From a virus (taxonomy: Duplodnaviria; Caudoviricetes): a DNA stretch of 64,000 nt. Position numbers and translations under genes: made by a program. Position 1 is the first letter of the stretch. Each line of letters starts with the position of its first letter. Under the pieces are notes generated by a model. That model saw nothing but the letters and a program-made list of their open reading frames with translations. It did not search any database and was not told where the DNA came from. Location of the stretch: IMG/VR virus record IMGVR_UViG_3300032038_000001, positions 128,001 to 192,000 of that record, one strand, 5' to 3'. Shown piece after piece: positions 2,637 to 57,433 of this stretch.

Positions 2637-2671
2637 ATAAGCGGTGTGAGATTAAATCTCACACCGCTTAT
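2637..2671. terminator. bidirectional intrinsic terminator
   Basis: Perfect inverted repeat ATAAGCGGTGTGAGATT/AATCTCACACCGCTTAT between convergent genes, A-run on the left. Confidence 0.8.
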
Positions 2672-2676
2672 ATTAG

Positions 2677-3612
2677 TTATTGAGGCTGCCTTTTTGCCAT
2701 GCAAGCCTCAATGTACTCACATGTTGTATTCACATTATTTTCCAAGTGAGCACATACTGAAGGCCACTGCCACTCTCTTATAACACCATCTTCGCAACAT
2801 TTGAACATTACATCGTTACGTATCATTTTATTATTTATATGTCCATCAACGATATATTTATTCTCTATGTTAGTATTAAATATATCATCAATTACTGAAT
2901 CAATCGTGTCAATGACATTCTCATAATGCTCTCTATTGATTTTCATTATCTTACTACGAATGTAGCGTTCTTCGTATCCCGTAACTCCGAAATCATCCTG
3001 TGAGAACTTCAGATATTTATCTACAAGTTCGTTCTCTATTCTTTCCCAGTTTATCTTCTTCGTCGTCATCATTATTTGATTATATAGCAGGCCTATACAA
3101 TCATCAATGCGTGCCGCCCACACCTCGCGGGATTTATACGGGCACTCATTTATGGGCGGATAGATGAGAACTGCTTCCTCAGATGAGAGTTCGTCTGCTT
3201 CTGCTTCTGTTTCGTCAACTGTTTCCTCAACTGTTTCTGTTTCGTCAACTGCTTCCTCAACTGCTTCCTGTTCTTCCTCAGATGAGAGTTCAGCGGCTTC
3301 TGCTTCGTCGACGTCGTTTTCCACCATTATCTCATCATCGTCTGCTTCGATTTCAGCATCAAGAGCATCGTCAGCATCATCCGAGAGTTCAGCTGCTTCT
3401 GCTTTGTCACCCGAGTCCTGCTCTTCCTCAGCTGCTTCTGCTTCCGCTTCGTCGACGTCGTTTTCCACCATTATCTCATCATCGTCTCCACCGAACTCAG
3501 CAGCATCAAAGGCCTGCTTAGCAAGTTTCCGCTGTCTCAGGATTGCAAAAATGCTTATTCCTGAAAGTCCTACTACACCAGCACCGATAGCGATTTTAGT
3601 TGTCTTTTTCAT
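2677..3612 (-). CDS. membrane-anchored acidic protein with internal duplication
   Basis: 311 aa; N-terminal hydrophobic helix (IAIGAGVVGLSGISIFAIL); E/D/A-rich region with DDDEIMVENDVDEAEA twice; RBS AAGGAGGT. Confidence 0.8.
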   Translation of the reverse strand: MKKTTKIAIGAGVVGLSGISIFAILRQRKLAKQAFDAAEFGGDDDEIMVENDVDEAEAEAAEEEQDSGDKAEAAELSDDADDALDAEIEADDDEIMVENDVDEAEAAELSSEEEQEAVEEAVDETETVEETVDETEAEADELSSEEAVLIYPPINECPYKSREVWAARIDDCIGLLYNQIMMTTKKINWERIENELVDKYLKFSQDDFGVTGYEERYIRSKIMKINREHYENVIDTIDSVIDDIFNTNIENKYIVDGHINNKMIRNDVMFKCCEDGVIREWQWPSVCAHLENNVNTTCEYIEACMAKRQPQ

Positions 3613-3780
3613 AAGATTACCTCCTTGTAATCATACTCTGTTTTATTGACTGTGGTAAACAGAGGGAACATACAAAGTTCTGAGAAACCACTTAAATGTT
3701 TTTATGTAATAATCTATATATAACTTAACCTGATACCTTCACTATGAAGTTAGGGTAAGTTATTATATATCTTATTACAC
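3613..3780 (-). ncRNA. conserved structured 5' leader RNA, copy 1
   Basis: Homologous to 4341-4509 and 5565-5736; 39-nt identical core (3634-3672); compensatory changes in stems between copies. Confidence 0.75.
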
Positions 3781-3815
3781 GGAGATAGTATATATATGAA
3801 ATTATTAAGTTTACG
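3777..3815 (-). promoter_or_regulatory. early-type phage promoter CGTA-N17-TATATACTAT-N4-GTGT
   Basis: Same 39-nt fixed-spacing motif at six sites in the window. Confidence 0.65.
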
Positions 3816-4004
3816 GTTATAAGAATAAAAATACTCTTAAAAAAATCAGGAACATATAAACCTGTATAAATAAGAATACATTCTTTCTCCTTTTTTCTCA
3901 TAGGACCTTAAAAAACTTGTAATTTGAAACTACTAAAAAATAAATAAGTCTTTTATAAAATAAAAAAAAGAAGCCCATACTATTACAGTATGGGCTCCCA
4001 TTAT

Positions 4005-4340
4005 TCAATCATTGGAAGGGGATGGATGGTGCCATCGTTCATCGATCCACCCCCATGTTATGAATGCCTTTCCATTGCATTCACCGTACCCTCTCATTAT
4101 GGCGTCTATGAATATACGCCCTTCCCTGGGAACAAACCCTGAAAAATCAGGGTTTAATTCATGGATGCCGAATTCGAACAGAACCCCTCTCTCAGACATA
4201 GCTGAGGTTATGTCTGAGAGAAGGTCTTCGGTGAGAAGCCCTCTAAACAATTCTAGCTCCATGTTTTGTTGAAAAAGCTGAGGACTCATTCTCCCAGCCT
4301 TTTCAACAAATTCATCTATCTGATTAATGATATTTTTCAT
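4005..4340 (-). CDS. hypothetical protein
   Basis: 111 aa, RBS AGGAGGT, followed by hairpin 3972-3996. Confidence 0.75.
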   Translation of the reverse strand: MKNIINQIDEFVEKAGRMSPQLFQQNMELELFRGLLTEDLLSDITSAMSERGVLFEFGIHELNPDFSGFVPREGRIFIDAIMRGYGECNGKAFITWGWIDERWHHPSPSND

Positions 4341-4509
4341 ATGATTACCTCCTAGTAATCTTACTCTGTTTTATTGACTGTGGTAAACAGAGGGAACATA
4401 CAAAGTTCCGAGAAACCACTTAACTGTTTTTATGTAATAATCTATATAACATCTTAACTCGATACCTTCGTTATGAAGTTGAGGTAAGTTATTATATATC
4501 TTATTACAC
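4341..4509 (-). ncRNA. conserved structured 5' leader RNA, copy 2
   Basis: Identical core 4362-4400; covarying stems. Confidence 0.75.
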
Positions 4510-4544
4510 ATAAATTATATATATATGAAAATATTCAGTTTACT
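4506..4544 (-). promoter_or_regulatory. early-type phage promoter (AGTA variant)
   Basis: AGTA-N17-TATATATAAT-N4-GTGT. Confidence 0.6.
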
Positions 4545-4635
4545 GTTTTATAATAAAAATATTATACCATTTAAAAATAATACTCTTAAAAATTAGGAAC
4601 ACAAACCTGTAAAAAAGGAGAAAGAAGGTATTCTT

Positions 4636-5373
4636 ATGAAAGAAATAGTATCAACAATCAACGGTAAAAAAACAGTAATGTCTATTCAGACGAACGGAGT
4701 AACTATTACAAAAAATATTGACGATAGTAATAGTTACGAAATAACCATCTATTCATCTCGATTGAAGAAGATAATAAAGAAAAAAATTATCCCAATCATT
4801 GATTGTATGAGTGATAATGATACAATTATAATTACTCCATCTGTTAGTAACAATGGGGTTCATACACGAATAGTGTGCGGGATAAATAAAGAAATGGTTG
4901 AATCATTATTATTATGGTATAATTCATTAGAATGTATTTTATCAATAAACAGATATTTGATTAAAGAATTCAACGAATATACTGATTATGAATTTGATAT
5001 AAAACGTGTGATTTATAGCAATTCTCATTCAACATTTTGGGAAACTATTAATAAAGATAAAGAATTGTATTTCACTAAAATAAATCAATACCAAAATGGT
5101 ATTATGTATATAACCACTAATAAAAATACTCATAGAGAAATTACATCATTGATAGCAAGGTCAACTTCTAAAATGACTCAATCAATTATTGATAAAGAAA
5201 TATCTTTTGATAATATTATTTCTATCAAAAGACTTATTAATGAAGAAAATATGAGTATTGATGAAGCGATAGAAAAAATTATTGGTGACACTAGTCGTTT
5301 CAACAGATATTTTAATAATTATGTGATACGGTATAAAAATTTAGATAAAATAATTCATTCATTAATAAAATAA
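4636..5373 (+). CDS. hypothetical protein
   Basis: 245 aa, AAGGAG RBS, AACA-N6-TG motif at 4598-4609. Confidence 0.7.
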   Translation: MKEIVSTINGKKTVMSIQTNGVTITKNIDDSNSYEITIYSSRLKKIIKKKIIPIIDCMSDNDTIIITPSVSNNGVHTRIVCGINKEMVESLLLWYNSLECILSINRYLIKEFNEYTDYEFDIKRVIYSNSHSTFWETINKDKELYFTKINQYQNGIMYITTNKNTHREITSLIARSTSKMTQSIIDKEISFDNIISIKRLINEENMSIDEAIEKIIGDTSRFNRYFNNYVIRYKNLDKIIHSLIK

Positions 5374-5382
5374 ATAAAAAAA

Positions 5383-5416
5383 AAGAGATACTAGTCTTGT
5401 AAGACTAGTATCTCTT
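5383..5416. terminator. bidirectional intrinsic terminator
   Basis: Perfect 16-bp inverted repeat flanked by A- and T-runs. Confidence 0.8.
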
Positions 5417-5423
5417 CTTTTTT

Positions 5424-5564
5424 TTAGATTAAAGCATTAACAATTGCTACAACTATTCCAAGAATGAGTATGACTGTCAACGCGACACCGATATCGTGAT
5501 CACGCTTCAATCTCTTGTAACCCTTGAATTTTCTTTCGCCGTTTTCTTTTCTGTTATTTTTCAT
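5424..5564 (-). CDS. small membrane peptide (46 aa)
   Basis: Start re-called at ATG5564 after AAGGAGGT; MKNNRKENGERKFKGYKRLKRDHDIGVALTVILILGIVVAIVNALI has a basic N-terminus and a C-terminal TM helix. Confidence 0.7.
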   Translation of the reverse strand: MKNNRKENGERKFKGYKRLKRDHDIGVALTVILILGIVVAIVNALI

Positions 5565-5736
5565 AATAAGTACCTCCTTATTGTACTTATACTCTGTTTT
5601 ATTGACTGTGGTAAACAGAGGGAACATAAAAGTTCCGAGAAACCACTTACTGCTGTTTATGTAATAATCTATATAATATCTTAATCTGACGCCTTCGCTA
5701 TGAAGTTAGATTAAGATATCATTTATCTTATTACAC
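5565..5736 (-). ncRNA. conserved structured 5' leader RNA, copy 3
   Basis: Identical core 5590-5628; most diverged copy, retains all stems through compensatory changes. Confidence 0.75.
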
Positions 5737-5771
5737 TGAAATATTATATATATGAAATTATTAAGTTTACG
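5733..5771 (-). promoter_or_regulatory. early-type phage promoter
   Basis: CGTA-N17-TATATAATAT-N4-GTGT. Confidence 0.65.
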
Positions 5772-5810
5772 GTTTTATAATAATATCTTTTTTATTTTTT
5801 TTATAATTGA

Positions 5811-11332: not shown

Positions 11333-11410
11333 TTTATATTCCTCCTTTAGATTTTTAATGGCTATTAGGAACATACATGTTTTGCAGTACTATGTAATAT
11401 TCCTTTACTT

Positions 11411-11449
11411 ACACTGAAATATTATATAATTATAATATTTATATATGCG
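11411..11449 (-). promoter_or_regulatory. early-type phage promoter
   Basis: CGCA-N17-TATATAATAT-N4-GTGT. Confidence 0.6.
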
Positions 11450-11493
11450 CTTTTCTATATACATTCAAATAACACCATCTGAAAAAGGGAGGA

Positions 11494-14943: not shown

Positions 14944-16801
14944 CAATCGGCATTCAGACCGTATTCTTTTTTAATTTATTGTTTATAAAATCTGAATGCT
15001 AATTAAATTGTATTTGAATTATTATATTGCTTTTAGTTAGTTTACTTGACTATATGTCTCTTTATAATAATTGAAAACTTTAATAAAATCTTCATTATTT
15101 TCTTTTCGTTCATTAAATTCATTGATAAATTCATTTAAAGTTAACTCTGGTATATTATCATCATATTTATCAATATAATTTTGATAAAATTTATATGCCA
15201 AATCATTTTCTATATTTGGTATTGAGAATATCCATGCAAGTATCGTATTAAGTCTCCAGTTTTCACTATCCACTTTATCCTGAAATTTATTAGTAAATAT
15301 AAGATTGGTATCAATAGCATGATGGATATTTTCATATATATCACACCATTCTAGATTTATAGCATAATTACATTCAGGATTACCATTTATATGATTAACA
15401 CAATTATATCTTTTCGGATTTTTATTTTTTACAAACATAAATGCAACTAATCTATGAATTGAAAACTCATCGAACCCATTATCGGTATTTAAAGATACCG
15501 ATAAATGACTTTGATTGCATCGATTGATATTGTGTGATTTATGAATGTTTGTATAGAAGCCCTTTGTGTTATTCCATATTCTACCAAAATTACTAATACG
15601 ATAGTCATCAATAAAATTAGTGCCTGGTATTTCTAGTTTCTTCCATTTTTCTTTACCTAAAATTGGAATATATAAAGTCGTCCACTCACGTTCTTGTTGG
15701 TGAACTTTGTTATTTACATCCCAATTATCTCCCCAATATAAGTTACTTTTATCACAATTAGTAGGGTTACCATCACGGAAAATAACTATATCTTTTCCTT
15801 CAGGTTTAGGTATAAAATGAAAAGCCACTAATCTACTCACAGAAGCATGCATTACATCAGATGAACTTTTATCGTAGTATAAGTTATATCTTAAGTAATC
15901 CTTATTTCTAGGGTCTTTAAATGGTTTAATGAACGAATCGGTATTACTATTGTAAAGTCTACCATCTTCACAAATATAATACTCGTAGTATAACTTTGTA
16001 CCTATATCCACTTTCTCCCATTCTTTGGTTTCATGATGGATATTAATTAAAGCTGTTATTCCTTTATCAATAGAAAGGTTGGATAGTTTACAGTTGTAAA
16101 TATTCCCATCAATATGATGGATATACATACCGGTTTTATAATCTGGGAAAAACATTAACACCATTAATTCATCATGATAAAAGAATTTTCGTTTGATTTT
16201 GCCATTATCAGCTATTATATTGAAAAAGATTGCAGGGCATTCATTCGGTCTTCTTTTATCATTATATGGATTTATATGATTTCCTGTAGATTTATTATAA
16301 ACCGTACCATCTTCATATATTTCATATTCATAAAGAAAATCTATATCTGGTAGTTTAATTATTTTATGCTTAATTTGATTTTCCCTCCTTAAGTTATTAT
16401 TAGCAATATAATAAATTCAAATACAATATTCTAGACTATATCTTCAATGTATATTCTTTAATAACAAATATACATAGCTGTCCGTTTCGTTTTAATAGAT
16501 TTACTTATAGCTAATCTCACTATAATACTAACCCTTAATAGGCACTACTCTACTCACTTCTTCACCCAAGTATTTCTCTTAAGCTATGCTTTCGATAGTC
16601 GTTGAACTCATATCTCCTTTATAAATTCTTTATAAAGGGATACTTTGCTGCGTCGATTGATTCAAATAAATACCTTTTTACTATACCTTTGGAGTTACCC
16701 ATTGCCATTATCATTATTACTAAGATAATTTAGTAGTATCTATTTATAGAATTCGTCCCCGCAATTAGAACAGTTTAATGTCGACCTCGCCCGTATGGTC
16801 A
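14944..16801 (-). mobile_element. group I intron 2 of the beta' gene (1858 nt), endonuclease ORF in the P9 loop
   Basis: P1 UGUCGAU/GUCGACA with U.G splice pair; core AAUUGCGGGGA, GACGCAGC, CAACGACUAUC, AAGAUAUAGUC; ~24-bp inverted repeat (15008-15031 / 16402-16426) closes the ORF. Confidence 0.9.
15037..16374 (-). CDS. intron-encoded HNH homing endonuclease with three tandem NUMOD4-HNH units, probable ATT start
   Basis: Frame stays open 70 codons upstream of ATG16164 to ATT16374, 9 nt after AAGGAGG; third unit IHRLVA...NHINGNPECNYAINLEWC. Confidence 0.8.
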   Translation of the reverse strand: MKHKIIKLPDIDFLYEYEIYEDGTVYNKSTGNHINPYNDKRRPNECPAIFFNIIADNGKIKRKFFYHDELMVLMFFPDYKTGMYIHHIDGNIYNCKLSNLSIDKGITALINIHHETKEWEKVDIGTKLYYEYYICEDGRLYNSNTDSFIKPFKDPRNKDYLRYNLYYDKSSSDVMHASVSRLVAFHFIPKPEGKDIVIFRDGNPTNCDKSNLYWGDNWDVNNKVHQQEREWTTLYIPILGKEKWKKLEIPGTNFIDDYRISNFGRIWNNTKGFYTNIHKSHNINRCNQSHLSVSLNTDNGFDEFSIHRLVAFMFVKNKNPKRYNCVNHINGNPECNYAINLEWCDIYENIHHAIDTNLIFTNKFQDKVDSENWRLNTILAWIFSIPNIENDLAYKFYQNYIDKYDDNIPELTLNEFINEFNERKENNEDFIKVFNYYKETYSQVN

Positions 16802-16885
16802 ATCGACAGTGGAACTGATAAACAGTAATCATTCTTATCATGTTTTATCTTTCTTATTTTCATAAGCAACATGCTATAAAAATTC
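16802..16885 (-). CDS. rpoC: RNA polymerase beta' N-terminal subunit, 84-nt exon 2
   Basis: (L)NFYSMLLMKIRKIKHDKNDYCLSVPLS(I); joins exons 1 and 3 in frame (1130+84+244=1458 nt, 485 aa). Confidence 0.88.
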
Positions 16886-17432
16886 CATTAACTATATAAT
16901 TCCCATTATATAACTGACTATATCATCATCTTTATATACTATTAACATATATAAAGAGCTCCCCATTTCGCTTTAATAGATTTACTTATAGCTAATCTCA
17001 CTATAATACTAACCTTGTTACAGGCGCTACTCTACTCACTTCTTTTACCAATGTATTTCTACATAGGCTATGCTTTCGATAGTCGATGAACGTTCTTATA
17101 CTAAATGATTACTTATTTCATAAATAGGGATTTCACCTATTGAAAGTGTTTTCCATATTTCGTTATCCTCATTCAATTCTATTAACTGATAATATTGCTT
17201 TAAAAATTTGGATAAAGGTTTGCGTTTTTTAGGCATATTTTTTTTCACCTCTTTTATTTTTTTAATCATTTAGTATATGCTTCGCTGCGGATTGTCTCTA
17301 TTCTCAATCTTTTTACTATACCTAAGGAGTTACCCTTCGCCCTCAAAAATATTTTGAGTTAGTAATTGAGACTTAACGAGATATCCCCGCAATTAAAGGA
17401 GTTTAACGACCTCAAATTTTTTTAGCAGCTCT
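16886..17432 (-). mobile_element. group I intron 1 of the beta' gene (547 nt)
   Basis: P1 CGACCUU/GAGGUCG; P10 AAAAAUUU/GAAUUUUU; core AAUUGCGGGGA, AAUCCGCAGC, CGACUAUC, GAUAUAGUC; P9 hairpin with GGGA loop; terminal G. Confidence 0.9.
17096..17236 (-). pseudogene. truncated NUMOD4 homing endonuclease remnant (46 aa) in the intron 1 P6 loop
   Basis: GAGGTG RBS; MPKKRKP...EIWKTLSIGEIPIYEISNHLV*; enclosed by inverted repeat TATACTAAATGATT/AATCATTTAGTATA. Confidence 0.75.
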
Positions 17433-36276: not shown

Positions 36277-36315
36277 CGTAAAATAAAAAATTATAATGAT
36301 ATATTATATATGTGT
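36277..36315 (+). promoter_or_regulatory. early-type phage promoter
   Basis: CGTA-N17-GATATATTAT-N4-GTGT. Confidence 0.6.
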
Positions 36316-36587
36316 AATAAGAAGATTATAAGCCACGTATAATCTTCACCCAGATAAACTAAGTTTAACATCAGACTGCAGCTGATGTAGAAATCTTAAA
36401 TTATGATGCTCGTGGCTTGCCGGCTTACATAATTTGAGATTCACTTAGTTATATTATATCGAAAAAGGAGTGAAAAGGTAGTTATATTATATCGAAAAAG
36501 GAGTGAAAAGGATGATTAATAGAATCAAAATTCCCTGATTAGACCGCACGTATTAATATCAATTAATACGTGCGGTCTTCTTTTTTT
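36312..36587 (+). ncRNA. candidate structured RNA with kissing-loop pseudoknot and 8-codon mini-ORF
   Basis: Own promoter and terminator (36541-36587); loops AGCCACG (36331-36337) and CGTGGCT (36411-36417) are complementary; several perfect stems. Confidence 0.65.
36446..36511 (+). repeat. perfect 33-bp tandem duplication containing an SD sequence
   Basis: TAGTTATATTATATCGAAAAAGGAGTGAAAAGG twice. Confidence 0.95.
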
Positions 36588-43513: not shown

Positions 43514-44701
43514 CAATATAGACTATATCATCATCTTCATATTCTATTATCAAATATGAAGAGCTCCCCATTTCGTTTTAATAGAATTACATATGGCTAA
43601 TATCACCATAAAACTAACCTATAAATAGGCACTACTCTACTCACTTCTTTACTTAAGTATTTCTCTTAAGCTATGCTTTCGATAGTCGTTGAACCTTGCT
43701 CTTAATAAGAGCCTTGGCTGCGGATTGTCTCTATTCTTAACCTTTTTACTATACCTAAGGAATTACCCTTCGCCACTAATATAAATATTAGTTTAGTAGT
43801 TAAGACCTAACGAGAGTTCCCCGCAATTAAAGGAGTTTATCCCGGTCCTCATGATGACTGTTTTTAATTTTTGATTTTATATATTTAACTCGTCCCCTAT
43901 TAAGTTCGGTATATTCCCAACCCATTTTTATCACCGTCTCTTTAACAGAATGATTTTTTAATAATCTTTCAATTTTTTTTATTTCTTCATATGATAAAAT
44001 GGAACTGAATTTTCTAATCTTTGGGAAATTGTAATTTTTACTAATAGATTTCCAGGTATCTCCACGCCTTATGTGTAATATAAAATCATACCCATATCCA
44101 TATTTAGCTTGGATTTTTTTAGGTGACATACCGGATTCTAAAAGTTCACATACTTTTTTAACATCTTGCTTTGTATGTGTAGATAAATTACATGTTTCAG
44201 AACCAACTATATTTGGACTTTTTAAACCATTTTTATATGCCCTAGAATTATTTTCTGAATAGGTACACCATTCTAAATTGTCTAATTTATAATTCATTTT
44301 ATTTCCATCCAGATGATCTATCACAGAATAATTGTGAGGATTTTCAATAAATGCGTTAGCAACTAGTCGGTGTATGGTTTTAGTTTTATATTTACCTTTT
44401 TTACCTAGTTGTATATTGATAGCCGGATATTGTAAACTTCTGGAGGATGGATTCATGTTAATCTTAAGTTTTTTATTAGTCTTAATATTATATACATTTC
44501 CATCCTGTGTTATCATATAATTCGTATCTTTATCATTTATAGTTATTATTTTACCAATGACACCATTTTCGAGTAATATTAATGATGAATAAAAACACGA
44601 ATCATAATTTCTGATAATATAAATATATGACATTAAATCAACTCCTATTAAATAATTATTGACTTGTTGTGCATGTATTTATCCAGATTACATTTTTTTT
44701 G
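43514..44701 (-). mobile_element. group I intron in terL (1188 nt), endonuclease ORF in the P1 loop
   Basis: P1 CCCGGUU/GACCGGG; 12-bp P10 AGUCAUCAUGAG/UUCAUGAUGACU; core closely similar to beta' intron 1. Confidence 0.9.
43827..44633 (-). CDS. intron-encoded HNH homing endonuclease
   Basis: YMITQDGNVYN, TIHRLVANAFI, IDHLDGNKMNYKLDNLEWCTYSEN; AGGAG RBS; internal AACA-N6-TA at 44657-44668. Confidence 0.9.
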   Translation of the reverse strand: MSYIYIIRNYDSCFYSSLILLENGVIGKIITINDKDTNYMITQDGNVYNIKTNKKLKINMNPSSRSLQYPAINIQLGKKGKYKTKTIHRLVANAFIENPHNYSVIDHLDGNKMNYKLDNLEWCTYSENNSRAYKNGLKSPNIVGSETCNLSTHTKQDVKKVCELLESGMSPKKIQAKYGYGYDFILHIRRGDTWKSISKNYNFPKIRKFSSILSYEEIKKIERLLKNHSVKETVIKMGWEYTELNRGRVKYIKSKIKNSHHEDRDKLL

Positions 44702-54163: not shown

Positions 54164-55900
54164 TTAAGAGACTGCTACTGAACGACAATAAATCTCATTT
54201 CCGTTGCCAACTGATATCGGATTTGTCCGAGCCAGCCAATCTTCGATTGTCGCATACCACGTATATGTACGCGTCTCGTCCTGTGATGTTGTGGGGAGAG
54301 TTGCGCCACTGTTGTAGGTTGTATATTCGACATAATCAACAATTGGTGAAACGGGATAATTGCTCGCGGTTGTATAATCGTCATATGTACCAAGTGGAAT
54401 ATAAATAATTGATATGTTGGTATTAAAAGTATTATTGGTTATAGTTGGTGGTTGAAGAGTCATAAATTTTACGGAAGTCAGTGCATTGCAGTACTTAAAT
54501 GTATCATTACCCATGCTTGTAACACTGTTCGGTATGGTTACAGAAGCCAGTGCTGAGCACCCGCTAAATACTTTGGCACCTATGTTTACAACACTGTTCG
54601 GTATGGTTACAGAAGCCAGTGCTGAGCAATTGATAAATGCACTCTCACCTATGCTTGTGACATTGTCCGGTATGGTTATAGAAGTCAGTCCATAACAGTT
54701 CTTAAATGTACCGTAACTCATGCTTGAAACACTGTTCGGTATGGTTACAGAAGTCAGTGCATAGCAAACGGTAAATGCATTGTCACCTATGCTTGTAACA
54801 CTGTCTGGCATGGTTACGGAAGCCAGTGCTGTGCATCCGGAAAATGCACTCGCACCTATGCTTATAACACTGTCTGGTATGGTTACAGAAGCCAGTGCTG
54901 TGCATCCGGAAAATGCACTCTCACCTATGCTTGTAACATTGTTCGGTATGGTTACAGAAGTCAGTGTACGGCAACTGCCAAATACACTGTTACCCATGCT
55001 TGTAACACTGTACGGTATGGTTACGGAAGTCAGTGCTGAGCACCCTCTAAATGCATTCTCACCTATGCTTGTAACACTGTCCGGTATGGTTACGGAAGTC
55101 AGTGCATCGCACCCGTTAAATGTATTATTACCAATGCTTGAAACACTGTTCGGTATGGTTACAGAAGTCAGTGCTGAGCACATGCTAAATGCAAACTTGC
55201 CTATGCTTGTAACACTGTTCGGTATGGTTACAGAAGTCAGTGTATCGCACCCGCTAAATGCGTCTTCTATGGATGTAATTCCATCTCCAATTCTTACATA
55301 TGTTACTCTGCTATCAGGTGTGTTAGACAGCATCATAGTAGTATCGTCCTCAATAGGTGTTACAGTTATATCATATTTACCACCATTTGAATAGGTATGC
55401 TCTGGCTGAGAGTCCACAGTTTCAGCACTGCTACCATCGCCCCAATCAATAGATGCTTCACCCATTATTTCTAATGGCAGAGTAACTAGCACTGAGTCGT
55501 TTTTCAATGCTACTCCGAATCTAGTCTTACCATCAGAGGTATTATACATCTGCCCGATATTAAGTTTGCCAAAAGCAGCAACATAAGTCTTAGCATCAGC
55601 TAAAGTCCAGTTCCAGCCTTGGGCGGTAAGACCCGTATGTGTGGGATTACTTGGCATTGCGGAAAGATTTGCAAAATCGGAAGCAGAATAGCTATGAAGT
55701 ATCGTACCGTCATAATCGTAGAAGATGACGTCATTTGAAGCTCCCGTGCTACCTGTCTGAATAGTAGCTATGTCGCTGGCAAACTCTTCTAAACCGTCAT
55801 TAGCACCAACAGTGCCGCCTTTAGCTGTTATTGCATTACCTATTGCAGTCTTAGCATTTACAAGTCTTGCAAGATTTTCAGCTATTGTGTATTCAGGCAT
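54164..55900 (-). CDS. BspA-type LRR surface/tail protein
   Basis: About 12 tandem 23-aa repeats (69 bp) LTSVTIPNSVTSIGxxAFxxCxA; IDWGDGS PKD-like segment. Confidence 0.9.
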   Translation of the reverse strand: MPEYTIAENLARLVNAKTAIGNAITAKGGTVGANDGLEEFASDIATIQTGSTGASNDVIFYDYDGTILHSYSASDFANLSAMPSNPTHTGLTAQGWNWTLADAKTYVAAFGKLNIGQMYNTSDGKTRFGVALKNDSVLVTLPLEIMGEASIDWGDGSSAETVDSQPEHTYSNGGKYDITVTPIEDDTTMMLSNTPDSRVTYVRIGDGITSIEDAFSGCDTLTSVTIPNSVTSIGKFAFSMCSALTSVTIPNSVSSIGNNTFNGCDALTSVTIPDSVTSIGENAFRGCSALTSVTIPYSVTSMGNSVFGSCRTLTSVTIPNNVTSIGESAFSGCTALASVTIPDSVISIGASAFSGCTALASVTMPDSVTSIGDNAFTVCYALTSVTIPNSVSSMSYGTFKNCYGLTSITIPDNVTSIGESAFINCSALASVTIPNSVVNIGAKVFSGCSALASVTIPNSVTSMGNDTFKYCNALTSVKFMTLQPPTITNNTFNTNISIIYIPLGTYDDYTTASNYPVSPIVDYVEYTTYNSGATLPTTSQDETRTYTWYATIEDWLARTNPISVGNGNEIYCRSVAVS

Positions 55901-55901
55901 A

Positions 55902-56504
55902 TTACAGCACCCCCTCTAAAACCGTATTAATGTTGCCGATTGTCTGTTGAATCGAAGCGATGTCTGTTTTGTTTGTAGTTATCTGCGCAAGCTGAGCTGC
56001 CGTTGCAAACTTGTTGGTAGAATTTGCATCGTCTACAAGGTCTGCGGACAGTTTGTTTTGAGCTGTAATCTCAGCCTGTAACCCGTTGATAATATCCTCA
56101 AGAGGTATTGTGATTGTTTGCCCTGACACCAGCGTCAGTATAAGCGACTTGCTTTGTGAATTGTACGAGCCGTTTACCACTGTGCTTTCTAAAGGCAAGT
56201 CAATGCTTTGCGCTTCGCCGAGAGGATCGCTGTTCTTATCCAGCAGCTGGACAGTCATAACGTATGTAGTCGTGTTTATTGAGATTGATATTCCAGTTGC
56301 ATAATCTTCACCGCCACTAGAATCACTTTGAACTTCGTTCCAATGACCATTAAACTTAGTATACTCAGATAAAACTTTTTTAGTAAGTTCGTCTATTACA
56401 TATGCGACATCTCCATTGTATCCATACGTATCAGTAAGACGTGATGCATCCGATACATATGTGGTACTACCAATATATTTTTTATTTACCATAATAAAAA
56501 TCAA
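55902..56504 (-). CDS. putative tail-fibre-associated protein
   Basis: ~196-200 aa; SIDLPLESTVVNGSY, LSADLVDD; C-terminal coiled coil; coupled to the LRR gene. Confidence 0.6.
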   Translation of the reverse strand: MIFIMVNKKYIGSTTYVSDASRLTDTYGYNGDVAYVIDELTKKVLSEYTKFNGHWNEVQSDSSGGEDYATGISISINTTTYVMTVQLLDKNSDPLGEAQSIDLPLESTVVNGSYNSQSKSLILTLVSGQTITIPLEDIINGLQAEITAQNKLSADLVDDANSTNKFATAAQLAQITTNKTDIASIQQTIGNINTVLEGVL

Positions 56505-56590
56505 CTCCTTTTATTTTTTTTTTAAATTATTGTCTTATATAATAATAGTTGAGGTTCTTATCCAAGATTGATTTTTGATAAAAATTTTGA

Positions 56591-57330: not shown

Positions 57331-57433
57331 ATATGAAAATCAACTCCTTTTATTTTTTTTTTAAATTATTGTCTTATATGATAATAGTTGAGGTTCTTAT
57401 CCAAGATTGAATTTTGACAGAAATTTAATAAAA

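Follow-up and report, generated by a model that had tools for sequence, protein, structure and literature searches.

Why would a jumbo phage place the same folded RNA in front of genes that have nothing to do with each other? The question arose in a window of 64,000 nucleotides, positions 128,001 to 192,000 of the virus record IMGVR_UViG_3300032038_000001 (250,395 nucleotides, 31% G+C). An earlier note, made from the sequence alone, described a promoter and leader module of about 205 bp occurring three times on the minus strand (3613-3815, 4341-4544 and 5565-5771), each copy ending at the start codon of a different gene. The note saw in the RNA a covarying 5' hairpin, a near-invariant H-type pseudoknot and a hairpin with the Shine-Dalgarno (SD) sequence in its loop, and read the whole as an undescribed cis-regulatory RNA: a riboswitch-like sensor, a phage-protein operator or an exonuclease roadblock that might double as a recombination handle.

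Re-examination of the window confirmed the observation itself. The three copies are 84-90% identical to each other, each ends at an ATG, and the 39 bases identical in all copies, the compensatory changes in the inner stem of the 5' hairpin and the variants of the SD hairpin are all present. The 5' hairpins fold at -23 to -26 kcal/mol, with z scores of -5.6 to -7.4. Several details of the note needed correction. The cassettes begin a little further upstream than stated, the genome holds ten copies and not three, and the three window copies show no covariation in the pseudoknot, for which the evidence comes from homologues. Stem 1 of the pseudoknot, given as five pairs, is firm for four, as the fifth, U-A, pair is broken in 6 of 25 copies. 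The three window genes are indeed unrelated to each other, but the first 44 amino acids of the 311-aa protein are shared with two other cargo genes of the genome.

A family of one-gene early cassettes

A neighboring gene has its nearest annotated relatives in Bacillus phages AR9 and PBS1 and Staphylococcus phage SA1, and the genome has two RNA polymerase beta-like genes, indicating an AR9-like jumbo phage with a virion and a non-virion polymerase. From these relatives, the endolysin and the labels of sequencing runs, we infer that the host is a Firmicute of the ruminant gut. Nine close copies of the leader were found in the genome, and a covariance model identified a tenth, diverged copy. Pattern scans and the model added copies from four other IMG/VR contigs and seven metagenome contigs, giving 31 distinct copies, in addition to four orthologs of the tenth. 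Contigs from RNA runs of four ruminant-gut libraries, two of which look like one data set, hold relatives of the leader joined to other ORFs, although contigs cannot show strand, start or level and so are not proof of expression.

Each copy follows a 13-mer that fits the AR9 early (virion polymerase) promoter consensus, an AT-rich 13-mer, six bases, then a G at +1 (PMC5312081), with 11 of 13 matches in the window copies. The G at the predicted start site is the first base of the 5' hairpin, placing the structure inside the transcript, where the start is inferred from the AR9 promoter rule. All ten genome copies are followed by one ORF and then an intrinsic terminator (see the table for the three in the window). 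The cargo ORFs are mostly small and mostly unrelated, and the nine tested have no significant Pfam match.

Features of the three window cassettes. Predicted start sites (+1) are inferred from the AR9 consensus (PMC5312081)
Cassette	Feature	Coordinates	Strand	Details
1	Early promoter	3779..3823	-	AR9-type 13-mer at 3785-3797; upstream GTAAA box at 3810-3816; predicted +1 = 3778
1	5'-terminal long hairpin	3706..3778	-	2x5 internal loop; optional domain
1	Triple-helix pseudoknot (by sequence comparison)	3636..3691	-	S1 3688-3691 with 3652-3655; third strand L1 3682-3687; cap hairpin P2 3665-3681; S2 3658-3664 with 3636-3642; loop 3 GUCAAU 3645-3650
1	SD hairpin	3615..3632	-	Shine-Dalgarno sequence in the loop
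1	Cargo gene	2677..3612	-	311-aa acidic protein with N-terminal membrane anchor; chimeric; no family match
1	Intrinsic terminator	2637..2671	-	
2	Early promoter	4508..4552	-	Predicted +1 = 4507
2	5'-terminal long hairpin	4434..4507	-	
2	Triple-helix pseudoknot (by sequence comparison)	4364..4419	-	L1 4410-4415; P2 4393-4409; S2 4386-4392 with 4364-4370
2	SD hairpin	4343..4360	-	
2	Cargo gene	4005..4340	-	111-aa protein; no family match
2	Intrinsic terminator	3969..3999	-	
3	Early promoter	5735..5779	-	Predicted +1 = 5734
3	5'-terminal long hairpin	5661..5734	-	
3	Triple-helix pseudoknot (by sequence comparison)	5592..5646	-	L1 5637-5642; P2 5621-5636; S2 5614-5620 with 5592-5598
3	SD hairpin	5566..5590	-	
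3	Cargo gene	5424..5564	-	46-aa peptide with a C-terminal hydrophobic stretch
3	Intrinsic terminator	5376..5423	-	

The copies are mosaic. Copy 1 shares its 5' hairpin with one genome copy (93%) and its SD hairpin with others (96%), while copy 3 is nearly identical to a copy 30 kb away that serves a different gene. Similarly, the 311-aa cargo joins an N-terminal anchor, the one shared with two other cargo genes, to a C-terminal domain found on its own behind another copy. Recombination among cassettes is thus evident, but it does not explain the structure. Decayed cassettes, in which the promoter and part or all of the 5' hairpin remain but the knot is lost, were seen at positions 2700-2860 of stretch L002 (about 90811 of the whole genome, minus strand) and 5130-5330 of stretch L017 (minus strand).

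Only about a quarter of the promoter-like sites in the genome carry the leader. At 36277-36587 of the window (plus strand, start about 36314), an early promoter with the same upstream GTAAA box drives a different long structured RNA without the knot, followed by a duplicated SD block and a tiny ORF. At 11374-11457 (minus strand), a promoter nearly identical to that of copy 3, but without the GTAAA box or the knot, precedes a 140-aa ORF. Promoter-like sites start with a hairpin at +1 more often than shuffled sequences do: 18 of 43, eight of them leader copies, against 17%. Other repeats in the window include a second 94-nt repeat (95% identical) upstream of paired genes at 56494-56587 and 57333-57426, ten tandem 69-nt repeats in a coding region at 54400-55320, and repeated non-coding blocks inside split core genes next to HNH-like ORFs at 16459-17360 and 43521-43793, possibly group I introns that the Rfam search did not detect.

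To place the element among known RNAs, we searched Rfam 15, the earlier note having named a strong match there as grounds for rejecting novelty. The window gave no hits at the gathering cut-offs, and no family matched the leader even at E 10, nor was there a match for a further stretch, L015. The best weak hit, cow-rumen-4 (RF02948), scored 19.9 bits against a cut-off of 48.5; it also ends in a hairpin with the SD in its loop, but has no knot and no triplex. A blastn search of GenBank phages found nothing. A first pattern scan gave 11 chance hits without stem 2, and of two scans of bacterial and archaeal genomes, one gave none and the other 11 chance hits that the model rejected. The element was not found in AR9, SA1 or four complete relatives, although a much diverged form could be missed, and the model gave no hit in the T7 A1-A2 leader (stretch L104). 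The element appears uncatalogued, although an entry in the supplements of Weinberg 2017 or of the 2023 catalogue of viral candidate RNAs (PMC10690425) cannot be excluded, and it looks confined to one clade.

The pseudoknot and its third strand

In an alignment of 28 copies, stem 1, the cap hairpin P2, stem 2 and the SD hairpin all show changes on both sides, in 18 of 22 pairs, with 90% of cells paired against 45-51% when partners are slid. An alignment not fitted to the model gave 16 of 24 pairs and 85%. Stem 1 occurs in at least five sequence forms, and one-sided changes give G-U pairs on the sense strand, as expected for RNA read from that strand. By contrast, the 5' hairpin is strong in the window copies but variable, ranging from 45 to 106 nt, with its internal loop missing in two copies and the whole hairpin absent in four. 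The knot sits about 10-14 unpaired bases behind the hairpin or, where the hairpin is missing, about 10 nt after +1. The three parts named in the note are therefore not one fixed module: the constant core, only about 85 nt, is the knot plus the SD hairpin.

Closer examination of the pseudoknot revealed a feature that the note had missed. The last four bases of loop 1 match the purine strand of stem 2 in parallel Hoogsteen register in 112 of 112 cases across the 28 copies, against 26 of 112 for antiparallel pairing and 26-69 for slid registers. Layer 1 is U.A-U in 26 copies and C.G-C in 2, layer 2 is C.G-C in 15 and U.A-U in 13, layer 3 is always U.A-U, and layer 4 is C.G in 26 and U.A-U in 2. 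Three layers covary, and every copy keeps at least one C.G-C triple. A tree built without these columns suggests only about two to four independent events, though each changes three positions together. Three copies found afterwards, using a pattern that did not include loop 1, obey the rule in the rarest form, and two copies with a longer stem 2 also have a longer loop 1.

This arrangement, known here by comparison only, is that of the triple-helical stability elements of MALAT1 and MEN-beta and of the KSHV PAN ENE (PMC7583470): a lower stem with a G-C pair (invariant in 28 of 28 copies) next to a pyrimidine-rich internal loop, an upper stem, a genome-encoded A-rich tract, U.A-U triples interrupted by C.G-C and by an inverted pair, and a triplex that ends flush. 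The phage element differs in lying in a 5' leader and not at a 3' end, with the SD hairpin and ORF behind it in all copies and terminators after the ORF, in having 4-6 layers and an asymmetric 6x9 loop, and in belonging to a phage of bacteria. Like the human telomerase RNA pseudoknot (P2b/P3; PMC7583470), it is an H-type knot with a U-rich loop 1 in the major groove of stem 2 and an A-rich loop 3, but it has a hairpin inserted at the end of loop 1 and lies in an mRNA leader without template or telomerase context. The AR9 early 5' UTR motif (PMC5312081, Fig. S3) shares the promoter class, the phage group and long early leaders; neither the model nor a descriptor search found the present fold in AR9.

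Possible functions of the leader

The note's interpretation is partly supported. An undescribed structured leader under selection holds, and the roadblock and operator options both stay open, whereas the riboswitch option is weak and the recombination handle, while it fits the mosaic copies, is probably a by-product. What sequence comparison shows is an H-type pseudoknot whose 6-nt pyrimidine loop 1 lies in the major groove of stem 2 as four stacked U.A-U or C.G-C triples, capped by P2 and followed after 2-4 nt by a weak hairpin (-5 to -6 kcal/mol) that displays most of the SD in its loop. The transcription start and everything said below on protection, stability, binding and regulation are inferred.

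We tentatively favor, at somewhat less than even confidence, a cis-acting protective leader for one-gene early mRNAs made by the virion RNA polymerase. In this view, the rigid triplex knot would stop a 5'-to-3' exonuclease of the RNase J type, if the host has one, just upstream of the ribosome-binding site, and would keep upstream sequence from pairing with that site. The optional hairpin at +1 would add a first layer by hiding the 5' end, and with the terminator hairpin at the other end the mRNA would outlast host-mRNA decay during takeover, while homologous recombination between copies would spread and remix the cassette. More than 20 unrelated cargo ORFs point to a generic job, and the element always lies directly before an SD and an ORF. 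There are precedents: triplexes of this layout are protein-free stability elements (PMC7583470), pseudoknotted xrRNAs block RNase J1 in vitro (PMC5760640), 5' roadblocks stabilize mRNA in Bacilli (PMC3997798), and host mRNA falls during AR9 infection (PMC5312081). However, known ENE triplexes protect 3' ends and not 5' ends, and the parallel with xrRNAs, which need a ring-like fold round the 5' strand, is by analogy. The restriction of the leader to a minority of promoter-like sites and its absence from AR9 and four complete relatives also count against this view. Further, loop 3 (GUCA) is conserved in sequence while stem 1 varies freely, and the tenth leader is almost invariant over 90 nt in five phages whose protein is 76-88% identical; both suit a binding partner better than a purely mechanical block.

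The main rival, although doubtful, is a translational operator, in which a phage or host RNA-binding protein would recognize the knot (GUCA in loop 3, kept in 27 of 28 copies and often repeated in the P2 loop) or the SD loop and switch these early genes on or off together. T4 gene 32 is a phage precedent for a pseudoknot operator (PMC10690425). One candidate is the product of the gene carrying the tenth copy (67433-68368 of the whole genome, outside the window; 1587-2519 of stretch L063), which has a predicted MazF fold (pLDDT 86; Foldseek E 2e-4, TM about 0.55), closer to MazF than to CptN, although the full-length prediction was poor. The gene is conserved just before the non-virion polymerase beta gene in many AR9-like gut phages, with no antitoxin neighbor seen. 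On the other hand, the usual catalytic Arg position is His, so that any activity is putative, and six distant homologs of the gene have no such knot upstream. Nor does the genome avoid the Firmicute MazF site UACAU in coding strands (ratio 1.01), although GGCC, GATC and CGCG are under-represented to about half, which suggests restriction avoidance. Another candidate is a CsrA-type protein, as these bind GGA in hairpin loops, but this likeness follows from the SD sequence itself, and an operator does not need a covarying triplex.

The remaining explanations appear less likely still. The leader could be the source of a stable small RNA, left blunt-ended by 3'-to-5' decay or by a cut right after stem 2, as in MALAT1, and acting in trans, for example as a decoy for host type III toxins, given that the triplex ends flush with stem 2 and that phage pseudo-ToxI decoys exist (PMC5086642). 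This is unlikely, as no terminator or tRNA-like cutting signal follows the knot and all 31 copies keep an SD and an ORF directly behind it. Type III antitoxins ToxI, CptI and phage pseudo-ToxI resemble the tenth copy, the only one of the ten with a predicted MazF-fold protein downstream, in that a pseudoknot precedes such a gene, but here the knot is a single unit without tandem repeats or a terminator before the gene, 9 of 10 copies precede other genes, and ToxI and CptI have no loop 1-stem 2 triplex. A riboswitch or pH sensor, with a ligand pocket or a dependence on protonated C.G-C triples, is very unlikely. Bacterial major-groove triplexes described so far are mostly riboswitch aptamers (PMC13541005), and SAM-II, SAM-V, preQ1-II, NAD-II and guanidine-III riboswitches are likewise 5' leader pseudoknots with major-groove triples close to the SD. 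Yet no aptamer consensus matches, the junction dinucleotide varies, no pocket is conserved, no alternative helix has real covariation, the only anti-SD pairing is wobble-rich, the SD is in a separate hairpin outside the knot, and the cargo genes share no pathway. Least likely are a self-cleaving ribozyme, for which no family matches, and a repeat kept only as a recombination handle or strong promoter, which the mosaic copies would allow, but three-way triple swaps and sense-strand G-U pairs need selection on RNA structure.

Major-groove RNA triplexes are known as 3' stability elements in eukaryotes and their viruses and as riboswitch pockets in bacteria, and the two reviews of RNA triple helices we consulted list none in phages. 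What is new here is the unusually clear comparative evidence for such a helix in a place where none has been described, as natural U.A-U to C.G-C swaps supply the compensatory test normally done at the bench. It is possible, though less likely than not, that this is the first phage or bacterial mRNA leader to use an ENE/MALAT1-like triple helix as a protein-free shield, or as the mark by which a phage-coded MazF-fold RNase tells phage early mRNA from host mRNA. If the element, naturally portable across more than 20 genes, does shield mRNA, it would offer a portable stabilizer for Gram-positive expression and would help explain how AR9-like phages spare their own early messages.
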